The notes under the pieces are model-generated. The model was not told where the DNA came from. It searched no databases and saw only the letters and a program-made list of their open reading frames with translations. The translations under genes and the position numbers were made by a program. From Candidatus Obscuribacterales bacterium (GTDB lineage Bacteria > Cyanobacteriota > Vampirovibrionia > Obscuribacterales > Obscuribacteraceae): a stretch of 64,000 nt of DNA. Numbering within the stretch: the first letter of the stretch is position 1; each line of letters opens with the position of its first letter. This document shows positions 9,082 to 12,000 of the stretch, in pieces. The stretch lies in contig CBDDIJ010000002.1 of assembly GCA_965228855.1 (NCBI GenBank), positions 576,001 to 640,000 on the forward strand. The letters run 5' to 3'.

Positions 9082-12000
9082 TTACTTCTTCTTATTATCA
9101 TCCTTGTTTTTCACGGTTCCACACAGATCGCTCGTCTCAAACGGATCATCACCGTCGTCACCATCGTCACCGTCGTCACCGTCATCGCCGTCATCGCCGT
9201 CATCTTTACAAGTTGCGCCACTCGGGCAAAGCTGATTTATGATGGTTGTGATCGATGGAATCTCAATAGTGATGCTGTTGACGGAGGAGTCCACATCCAA
9301 GTCAAACAAACCAAGCGGGTCTGTTTTGTTCAGAGGATCGTTTTTCACGTAGTTGTAAGCGTTCAGATCCATAGGAGAGTTCGGTGTCTCCTGCCTTACG
9401 GACGCACTGTGCACGGGCGAAAGGTACAGCGGATCCGGCTGCAAGAATCGACCGATTGCGGGTGCATAGTACCTTCGCTTAAAGTAGTAAAGCCCGGTTT
9501 CACTATCAAAACGCTGCCCGGTGTAACCAAATGTAGTACCACTGAGACCCAAGCTTTCTCCCCATGGAGAATAAGCGTATTGGTTAACAATTGCACCTGA
9601 GACGTCAGATGTAGCCATGATTGAACCAGCTTTAGCATGATGCAGATAGGTAGGCGTTCCAATCGCATCCAGCTCAATCAACGGTTCATCAATACCAGTT
9701 CCGTACACAAAGCGACGCTGGAATATGTCGGCACCGTCATAGTCAGCGATTCTCTGCACGCCGGAATATACATATCGAGTTTTGGATCCACCCACATTTT
9801 TCTGTCCCTGGCGATGGAATGGATCGTACAAGTATGCGATCGACGTGACCCCATCATCAGCGGAAACAAGATGGTTCTCCGCATCATAGACAAAACTCCA
9901 GACTCCATCGTCTGTAAGAGCGCCATTTCCATTGTATGTATAGCTGTTTGCTCCAACCCCTGGATACTGATTCAAGTCGTTCGCCGATCCGTAACTGACG
10001 GTACCACCACTGCCTGGATGCCACATGAACTGCGCATCGTCAACATCCTGGTTCGTCAACTCCCGGGCTCCATTGTATCCGTAGGTGAACTCAACAGCAG
10101 AGCTGCTGAAGGTCTGCATCAGCGATTCGAGTGAATTATCCAGCTCATACGTGTAATCGGTCTGTGCGCCGTTCGCATATGTGATTTTCGTGCGCCGCGA
10201 GAGATCATCGTAGTTAAACGTAAGGGCACTTGATCCAGATCCGTTCAGCTTCACATCTGTAAGCCGGTTCATTTCATCATAAGCGCGCTCGACATAATAA
10301 GAGTCTGGCCACGTCAGCCTCGTGAGGTTTCCATTTTCATCCAACTGGTAAGAAACCAGCTTACCGTCTGGAGATTCTTCCGAAATCACCCGACCTGCGG
10401 TATCGTAACCGAGTTCGAAAGTTCCGGACGTTGGTTCTCCTATCACGGTAGGAGTGCTGACACTTTTAAGCCGGTTTGCGAGGTCATATGTCAAACTCAC
10501 AACAGCCTGCCCATCTGGCGCACGCTCAGTCATACGATTCAGCGCGTCATATTGGAACGCTATGGAATCTCCCGACCGAGTAAGCTTGTTAGTGACCCTA
10601 TCAGCATCGTTCCAAGACCATTCTTCGAATGTCGTGTCCGGATATACAAACTTACTGACGCGGTCAAAGCCATCGTAAAGGAACGTTGAGACGTTGCCGT
10701 TCCCGTCCTCAACAGTCTCAACGCGACCGTTGTCCGTGAAAGTTCGAACTTCGGCGGTGCCCGACGATGCATCCACGACGCTTTTCAACCGGCGAAGTTC
10801 ATCATAGGTTCGCGTCGTCAGACGACTTTCTGCATCAGTAGTCTTCCAAAGCTTTCGAATGCTGTTGTATTCGAACGTTGTCTGATTGCTGGTTGGGTCT
10901 GTCACCGAAGTGAGTAGGTCATCGATAGAGTAGACAGCATCGACGACCTGCCAGGGCGTCACTAGATCTCCCGTCTGACGCTCTATTTTCACACGGTTAC
11001 CGTTCTCATCGTACGAAAACTTTGTTTCGTACAAATGAGGAGCAGCTTCTGTCCGTTTCGTCATCCGTCGCAGATCGTCAAAGTCGAATGTCACTTCGTC
11101 GCCACGTGGATTGGTTTCGGAGATTAGGTCACCGTAGGCGTTGTAGCCGTACAGGGTGGTTAAGTTCAAGCGACCCAACCCAGAATCTCGAACGATGGAC
11201 AGTCGCTCTTCGTTAATCGGGTCATAAGAAACACTTGTCACGATGCCAGTTCTATCCGTCCAGGTCAAAAGCTGACCACGAGCGTTATAGGTAAATTCTG
11301 AACGAGGTGTCTGGAAGTTGACGATGGGGAACTCCATCGCGAGAAGGTTCCCCGTAACCGGGTCATACTCGCGCGTAATAGTCTGGTTAAGCTGATCGGT
11401 GGAAGATTCCACCTTATTCCATACGACATCATAGGTGAACTGTTTGACAGTGTCAGACAATCCGCTCCCCCCCTTGGCCTTCCGAGTAATCGACAGAACA
11501 TTGTTGTTCTCGTCATAAACATACTCAGTTGAGTTACCTTCAGGTGCGGTTTCCCGGACGAGGCGCTGTTTCCCATCGAACTCGAATGTGTGCTCATTAT
11601 TAAGAGCGTCGACAATTTTTGTCGTTTTTCCATAACTGTCGAAGAAGAAGACTTGTCCATTGTTATTTGGATCAACTTCCTCCGCGCGGCTACCTGCAAA
11701 GTAATACGTCCAAAGATTGTCATAAGCGTCGTACTGCTCCTTTACGCGCCCAATCGAATCGTAGACATTTTCAATAAACGAATCCGACGGGTTTGCAGGA
11801 TAGAAGATCTTAGACAGCAACGCATTGCCGTCATACTCAAATGTGGTGTCATTTGACATGGTATCGGTGAAGACAATCAGCTTGTTACCACTGTAGTCAA
11901 ATTCAACTGTTCTACCTTCACCGTCCGAAACAGATGTAATTAAATCGCCCGTATAGGACAGATTCAAAACACGGGTCAGACCGTTAGTTACGCTTGTCAA

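Follow-up and report, generated by a model that had tools for sequence, protein, structure and literature searches.

A Rhs protein carrying a candidate class I lanthipeptide precursor as its C-terminal tail, encoded ahead of lanC and lanB in an Obscuribacterales genome

The Rhs tail and the adjoining lan genes

The stretch of DNA considered here (the window) comprises 64,000 nucleotides of a Candidatus Obscuribacterales genome, and its subject is a large Rhs (YD-repeat) protein whose 74-residue C-terminal tail is probably a class I lanthipeptide precursor. On the minus strand the order is the Rhs gene with its tail, a hairpin, the cyclase gene lanC and the dehydratase gene lanB, while an S41 peptidase gene runs convergently towards lanB. 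The genes are closely packed, with 90 nt between Rhs and lanC and 16 nt between lanC and lanB. Coordinates of all features are collected in Table 1.

Table 1. Features of the Rhs-lanC-lanB region, in window coordinates
Feature	Position	Strand	Details
S41 peptidase, nisin-resistance (NSR) type	3572..4609	+	PF03572; convergent on lanB
LanB dehydratase	4648..7680	-	1010 aa; PF04738 E 4e-138, PF14028 E 5e-50
LanC cyclase	7697..8992	-	431 aa; PF05147 E 5e-47
Hairpin, Rhs stop to lanC start	9019..9048	-	13-bp, GC-rich, GAAA loop, short weak U run
Candidate lanthipeptide precursor tail	9085..9306	-	74 residues, F1794-K1867; stop codon 9082-9084
9-nt tandem repeat	9146..9204	-	6.6 copies, 90% match; encodes (DDG)n acidic spacer
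Stretch flagged in the initial annotation	9205..9309	-	L1793 to K1827; translates to LFDLDVDSSVNSITIEIPSITTIINQLCPSGATCK
FDLD box	9295..9306	-	Residues 1794-1797, first four after predicted self-cleavage site
Rhs-associated core domain	9307..9573	-	Residues 1705-1793; TIGR03696, whole profile 1-76/76
Rhs/YD-repeat protein	9082..14685	-	1867 aa as longest open reading frame (ORF) of the region
48-aa YD-repeat ORF	14630..14776	-	Kept in L028 (54%/37 aa) and L116 (76%/38 aa)
Lipoprotein-like ORF	15404..15964	-	Signal peptide with LSGC; kept upstream of Rhs in L115 and L116
Small membrane protein	15973..16491	-	Kept near Rhs-lanB loci L028, L116, L118 and L124

Profile scans of the Rhs protein recognise a transglutaminase-like domain, DUF6531, RHS repeats and the Rhs core, with the repeats matched by PF05593 (E 1e-46) and by TIGR01643 in nine stretches, and with both Rhs and Tc structures among the matches. 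The core terminates at L1793 in P-LNKT-DPLGL, an instance of the self-cleavage motif PxxxxDPLGL. According to the available part of a structural account of these proteins, Rhs proteins are cut after PxxxxDPxG[W/L/F], with D1324 and D1346 as the aspartate pair of RhsA (PMC8765631). The equivalents of this pair are D1751 (codon 9433-9435) and D1789 (9319-9321), both invariant in 36 of 36 aligned homologues. As the core ends at L1793 within this motif, the FDLD box is the first thing past the predicted cut, and self-cleavage there is predicted to leave a peptide headed by FDLD. This exact coincidence of box and cleavage site goes beyond the initial annotation of the region. At the other end of the protein the true start is likely M46 at 14550, since homologues align from about residue 41-55; no signal peptide was seen at either candidate start when these were read by eye.

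The tail contains 12 Ser/Thr in all, and the (DDG)n spacer separates its two Cys-bearing parts. The box runs from F1794 (9304-9306) to D1797 (9295-9297), and further along lie P1810 (9256-9258), S1811 (9253-9255) and I1812 (9250-9252), the last opening the ITT that the initial annotation took as the first core residue. In the nisin leader FNLD occupies -18 to -15, Ser -12 and Pro -2. The letters and counts reported for the tail hold: with ITT as +1, FDLD falls at -18 to -15, Ser at -12 and Pro at -2, leaving a core of 56 residues with 3 Cys and 7 Ser/Thr. The matches of Ser -12 and Pro -2 carry little weight, because +1 was chosen to fit, and the claim that the geometry agrees with nisin residue for residue is not borne out by conservation, as the closest Rhs-lanCB homologue (L028) has its box, a YDID, only after 44 residues of tail and lacks the Pro at -2. 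Cleavage before ITT and the proposed ring map were guesses and found no support.

From 8900 to 9700, a stretch that takes in the junction, the repeat, the stop codon and the hairpin, contigs from four public runs in two studies show 0 differences, where one of the four runs may be the assembly's own source; no RNA run was recorded for the stretch. The junction being identical across runs, the fusion of Rhs and tail is not a one-off slip of assembly. Slippage could alter the length of the (DDG)n repeat, and its length is identical in the four runs compared.

The presence of FDLD on the Rhs tail is more than chance, because the box sits at the Rhs core boundary, is the sole credible candidate in the genome and stands beside lanB and lanC, each the only one of its kind in the genome. 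Within the window's first 22 kb no stand-alone precursor with F[NDE]L[DENQ] was found, and the only credible Cys-bearing frame was the Rhs tail. A six-frame scan of the whole genome with a loose filter (F[DN]L[DE] and then a short stretch with Cys, Ser and Thr) gave 29 candidates, of which the Rhs tail alone was credible, the other 28 being chance frames that are arginine-rich or have no start. LanB and LanC are the sole matches to their families in the 8.2-Mb, six-contig genome, and a search with LanB for related loci in a collection of genome contigs revealed no relative. When the pattern P-x4-DPxGL-F[DN]LD was scanned across GTDB, 18 loci were returned, about the number expected on a rough estimate; the sole Rhs gene among them, from Tannerella, was set aside as its 168-residue tail is not lanthipeptide-like.

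LanB is full length, with the glutamylation and the elimination domain, and its solved relatives are MadB (9g04, the best, E 1e-83), MibB and NisB, matched over residues 57-993. Many of its Arg, Asp and His columns are invariant in 12 relatives, and these presumably map to the catalytic residues of NisB. R138 and R154 pair in a HMMER alignment with R161 and R182 of MadB, and R138 is invariant in the 12 relatives. These are the residues through which MadB holds the FDLD box of its precursor MadA, as given in the available text of that study (PMC12241602). For LanC the solved relatives are MadC (8byk, E 4e-38) and NisC; SHG, WCYG and CHG are identical in the 8byk alignment, and we take these to be the zinc-ligand motifs of LanC. 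Taken with the lan genes directly after the Rhs gene, with the FDLD[VI][RQ] boxes of related LanB systems and with the binding of FDLD by MadB, the earlier proposal of a class I-like leader and Ser/Thr/Cys core on a Rhs tail is supported.

The hairpin between the Rhs stop codon and lanC is attenuator-like, its fragment folding at -38.3 kcal/mol (z -5.25); a consensus terminator scan did not call it. A comparable leaky terminator lies between precursor and enzyme genes in nisA-nisB.

The conserved S41 neighbour, likewise a point beyond the initial annotation, has as its sole PDB relative the nisin-resistance protein NSR (4y68, E 2e-17; residues 30-317 aligned). Its TASSGEA is aligned to TASSAEM of NSR and its GDGHS to GGKHS, with the His aligned to His98. 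The accessible portion of the NSR study assigns roles to Ser236 and His98 and describes recognition of nisin's last ring with a cut behind it (PMC4698656). The annotated S41 frame has no clear export signal, and the N-terminus of its L028 homologue is hydrophobic. An ATG at 3559 opens a signal-peptide-like frame (3559-3620, MKFKIGPDRCVWLLFF) that is one base out of the S41 register near a T7 run; either the frameshift is genuine or the assembly has an error in the homopolymer.

Recurrence in relatives and comparison of the tails

A Rhs gene stands directly ahead of lanB in four genomes of four genera (the window, L028, L116 and L115), all from one family (Obscuribacterales, by source names). 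Among 75 metagenome loci fetched with the LanB profile, two (L028 and L029) have Rhs directly before lanC-lanB; they represent one organism, L029 retaining just 360 residues of Rhs, immediately preceded by transposase-like ORFs. L028 is apparently contig G454:C9, since its LanB lies at the same coordinates. Identity between L028 and the window is 52% for Rhs (residues 59-1809), 37% for LanC, 36% for LanB and 35% for the convergent S41 peptidase, and L028 also has the small YD ORF and the membrane protein. Within the bacterial family LanB occurs in 15 of 104 genomes, whereas among 401 genomes sampled across the phylum it is present solely in the window's own. Of the family loci, L116 (G497) has the membrane protein, the lipoprotein, the YD ORF, a Rhs 62% identical to that of the window, lanC and lanB, and L115 (G492) has a Rhs (43%) followed directly by lanB. 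The adjacency of Rhs and lanB is thus kept at 43-62% identity of Rhs and 34-36% identity of LanB. In L117 (G482) a decayed remnant of the Rhs core precedes lanC-lanB. L119 (G446) was left out of the count, as it holds only a Rhs fragment with transposase-like ORFs between the fragment and lanB.

In a LanB tree of 59 rows (FastTree) a single clade of nine rows, with a support of 100, takes in all four Rhs-linked LanBs, and the same clade is recovered by IQ-TREE with 24 rows (SH-aLRT 100). The other five rows of the clade are P0012, P0013, P0014, G482 and G010. At the Rhs-lanB loci no stand-alone boxed precursor was found in 17-20 kb.

The four LanB-linked tails have no alignable sequence in common. 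They comprise 74-109 residues with 3-12 Cys and 12-24 Ser/Thr; among Rhs homologues at large, where 88 of 120 had a measurable tail, 58 of the 88 tails have 0-1 Cys and 25 have at least 3. Certain features recur nonetheless in the LanB-linked set: a low-complexity spacer in three of the four, being (DDG)n in the window, DDPPPPPPEPGP in L028 and Pro/Thr-rich in L115; a Lys-rich end in all four; and ahead of that end, in three of the four, an [ST]-x3-4-C-[GA] element (TSDLCG, SEVPPCG, TPPPCA).

The box itself varies in position, with FDLD at tail position 1 in the window and YDID at position 44 in L028. Three further Rhs homologues carry a box, namely P0147 (FDLDVQ), P0207 (FDLNAQ) and P0152 (FDIE); when P0147 was searched in the 104 family genomes, its best match was 63% identical. 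The suggestion that FDLD is kept in homologous Rhs tails is therefore mostly borne out by these four boxed homologues, and it fails for the tails of L115 and L116, where no box of this type is present. Five more Rhs loci, whose alignments reach into the tail, were rejected as candidates, having ordinary tails without Cys. At 27 of the 75 metagenome LanB loci motif matches were found, many of them small FDLD[VI][RQ] precursors and the others chance frames, and in L123, a lanCB cluster without Rhs from the same bacterial family, the FDLD precursor is free-standing. Judged by its letters, the FDLDV of the window is the usual docking box of related LanB systems, placed on a Rhs tail.

Several further precursors and tails were seen during these comparisons. 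The tail of P0148 repeats a Pro-rich ES[TA]P[LV]PPCPG unit six or more times and that of P0212 is made of TPPKC/TPPTC units; in both, each unit holds one Ser/Thr and one Cys, and the units resemble the repeats of serial small-ring lanthipeptides. The contig recorded for P0212 and that recorded for the LanB P0014 are both 72,236 bases long, a hint that they are one and the same. At L069, L073, L049, L080 and L092 an FDLD leader and core lies beside LanB after an open frame of 128-272 residues, and the last 25 residues ahead of the box contain no Met. Such stretches may belong to class I precursors that carry a large N-terminal extension other than Rhs. On metagenome contigs, L083 (9280-9850) and L094 (175) encode three identical tandem small precursors, MNNVKNLFDLDVQV...ITSVSLCTPGCGDTGSWNSFCC, with an FDLD leader and a nisin-like ring A/B core.

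Proposed function and rival explanations

The reading we hold to be probable is that the 74-residue Rhs tail is a substrate of LanB and LanC, that is, a class I lanthipeptide precursor made up of an FDLD box and a Ser/Thr/Cys core. Because the tail opens with FDLD and the only enzymes in the genome that form lanthionine are encoded next to it, a ring-stapled payload is likely. Under this reading LanB would use its leader-binding region (R138 and R154) to dock on FDLD, glutamylate Ser and Thr residues and eliminate, after which LanC would join the three Cys into thioether rings; among the candidate rings the best conserved would be the distal [ST]-x3-C-G before the Lys-rich end. The Rhs aspartyl autoprotease would cut after L1793 and free the FDLD-headed peptide, which the Rhs shell may hold or carry as payload in place of an enzyme toxin. 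The NSR-type S41 peptidase might then trim off what follows the last ring of the peptide, to protect the producer or for maturation.

Several observations weigh against this reading. The tail matches no NCBIfam family and has two chance-level Pfam matches (E up to 10), with no LanA model in either collection fitting it, so the check by LanA profiles that had been proposed for it did not come out in its favour. Among 1.84 billion representative sequences searched with phmmer, relatives of the tail are absent, all five matches being to the DDG repeat; a word-indexed search with the last 82 residues among proteins of 1026-3268 residues gave four weak matches, none related. The ESM Atlas likewise gave no usable match for the tail. 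Two of the four tails at Rhs-lanB loci, those of L115 and L116, lack a box of the F-D-L-D type, and the box is therefore not the whole story of recognition. L115 is also without lanC between Rhs and lanB, and G010, which falls in the LanB clade, has no Rhs within 1.8 kb upstream of lanC on its 7.3-kb contig. The gap between D1751 and D1789 is 38 residues, compared to 22 in RhsA, owing to a 15-residue insert that is missing from the Rhs of L028. Among 23 ORFs scanned between 1 and 55 kb, which are part of the ORFs of the window, neither a LanT (ABC exporter) nor a LanP (S8 protease) was seen; the missing S8 protease does agree with the earlier expectation that a NisP-type protease is unlikely here. 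For Rhs no known export system was found: the genome, 95% complete, gave no match to TssC or PAAR. Finally, neither a LanB of about 115 kDa nor a LanB dimer could enter a closed Rhs shell, so that modification would have to precede enclosure or the tail would have to stay outside.

This last difficulty gives rise to the most serious alternative, in which LanB and LanC do modify the tail and Rhs is no more than a giant leader or scaffold: the tail would lie outside the shell as in teneurins and, once self-cleaved, leave by another route, not packaged in a shell. Solved Rhs and Tc proteins hold the C-terminal payload inside a closed shell and the teneurin C-terminal domain lies outside it, in the available part of the source (PMC8765631), and LanB, as said, cannot reach inside a closed cocoon. 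The failure to find a sheath or PAAR of a type VI secretion system in the genome fits such a scaffold, and the metagenome FDLD leaders that follow long open frames indicate that long N-terminal extensions may exist. Against it, both aspartates and PxxxxDPxGL are kept, which fits a payload-releasing Rhs and not the uncleaved teneurin type, and no exporter gene was found among the ORFs scanned at the locus; the scaffold is rated unlikely, though it outranks the other alternatives.

Rather more improbable is an ordinary polymorphic Rhs toxin with an unmodified Cys-rich tail, the LanBC precursor lying elsewhere and FDLD being there by chance. The lack of any LanA model for the tail and the two Rhs-lanB tails without a box speak for it, as do Cys-rich tails without nearby lan genes in the same Rhs family, for example that of the genome's second Rhs. 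It has to contend with an adjacency of Rhs and lanB kept in four genera, with Rhs-linked LanBs that form one clade, with loci and a genome that offered no other candidate precursor, with FDLD lying exactly at the domain boundary and with lanC, not a gene of immunity type, coming after Rhs (no immunity-type gene follows Rhs among the 23 ORFs). That LanB, LanC and the S41 peptidase form a protection module, altering or destroying the Rhs peptide or similar incoming peptides, would suit the relation of the S41 neighbour to a resistance protease and the place normally taken by immunity genes after Rhs toxin genes. No role other than biosynthesis is known for a full-length LanB paired with LanC, however, and no S41 gene occurs in the retrieved portions of L115 and L116, both of which have lanB; this explanation is very improbable. 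The remaining explanation, a recent accident or artefact in which a free lanA became attached to the end of Rhs through loss of a stop codon or through misassembly, is given almost no probability: FDLD abuts DPLGL with no spacer or remnant of a start region, the junction is identical across the runs and studies compared, and the same design occurs in three further genera with unrelated tail sequences.

Returning to the LanBC-modified tail as payload, a broader proposal can be put forward only tentatively, with somewhat less than an even chance of being right: Rhs shells of the Obscuribacterales may package lanthipeptides made by LanB and LanC, free them at FDLD and carry them into or onto neighbouring cells. 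If true, this would be the first ribosomally made, ring-stapled peptide to serve as the warhead of a delivery system of the polymorphic-toxin kind. If the shell does deliver the peptide, it would offer a lantibiotic a natural route past the Gram-negative outer membrane, the barrier that limits lantibiotics.

The new element is the union, the precursor of a ribosomally made peptide with post-translational modifications (RiPP) as the variable tip of a polymorphic toxin, the enzymes and the carrier each being ordinary. For lanthipeptides it would mean a precursor that is not a free peptide, that is released by the aspartyl protease of its own carrier and that has its box at the very N-terminus; precursor finders built on small ORFs would miss the whole group. 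For Rhs proteins it would be the first payload to need post-translational tailoring, and it raises the mechanistic question of how a 115-kDa enzyme can act on a tail whose final place is within a closed shell. As the tails are wholly different between genera, they may amount to a panel of new ring topologies, in which toxin tips are swapped while the tailoring pair is conserved. No paper joining Rhs with lanthipeptides or RiPPs was found, nor a relevant one on lanthipeptides of Melainabacteria, in searches that left most subscription journals outside.

Likeness to known systems and other features of the locus

The nearest known systems are those of nisin (NisA/NisB/NisC, 4wd9) and maddinglicin (MadA/MadB/MadC; 9g04/9g05, 8byk). 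Like them, the window has a full-length two-domain LanB with a LanC and an F-D-L-D box before a Ser/Thr/Cys stretch; the MadB arginines holding FDLD are matched in the window LanB, and the passage from precursor to enzyme genes by way of a hairpin is shared with nisin. In the nisin system the FNLD box is described, in the available text, as pivotal for binding of NisB and NisC and for formation of the complex (PMC7296275). Unlike these systems, the precursor in the window is not a free peptide of 30-60 residues but the C-terminal end of a Rhs protein, the predicted cut leaves nothing ahead of the box, the (DDG)n spacer interrupts the core and neither LanT nor LanP was found among the ORFs scanned. 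The host differs as well, being a non-photosynthetic relative of the cyanobacteria, placed in Obscuribacterales/Melainabacteria by the source names of Rhs homologues, in whose genome no reaction-centre gene of PsbA type was found. As for NSR, it is a resistance factor of non-producers, whereas the S41 gene here lies within the cluster of the putative producer.

In comparison to Rhs and Tc-toxin C systems (RhsA of Pseudomonas protegens, 7q97; Tse5; Tse15; TcB-TcC), the protein is alike in its YD-repeat shell, DUF6531 and Rhs core, in PxxxxDPxGL with both aspartates and in a hypervariable tail that differs between close homologues. It departs from them in its payload, which would be a short Ser/Thr/Cys peptide and not an enzyme or a pore-forming domain, in a transglutaminase-like domain at the N-terminus, in being followed by RiPP tailoring enzymes and not by an immunity gene, and in that no PAAR, VgrG-type or TcA-type partner was seen at the locus, no search aimed at TcA having been made.

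RiPP precursors with large N-terminal carrier parts are represented by the Nif11/NHLP-leader prochlorosins. The likeness lies in a modified C-terminal tail on a much larger N-terminal part; here the carrier is a self-cleaving Rhs shell of about 1800 residues and the enzymes are classical class I LanB and LanC.

The conserved neighbours had no match in PADLOC. Upstream of Rhs, the 48-aa ORF with one YD repeat, which ends in TTCGGGGC, lies directly before the Rhs gene and overlaps its longest ORF. About 4 kb upstream of Rhs, at 18971-19736 on the plus strand, a ribbon-helix-helix protein is followed by a toxin of the ParE family, together a type II toxin-antitoxin pair. On the far side of the lan genes, a RecD-like superfamily-1 helicase (396-1703, minus strand) matches the PADLOC candidate defence family PDC-M16A (E 3e-30) and is adjoined by a TPR protein at 1903-2589.

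The genome also encodes a second Rhs of the same family (G000:C5:1245903-1258000). Its tail of 136 residues is rich in Gly, Ser and Asn and has seven Cys. Behind this Rhs come seven ORFs, paralogues of about 245 residues each, that resemble an array of immunity genes. The same type of tail is present in at least eight further homologues, P0222 and P0227 among them.

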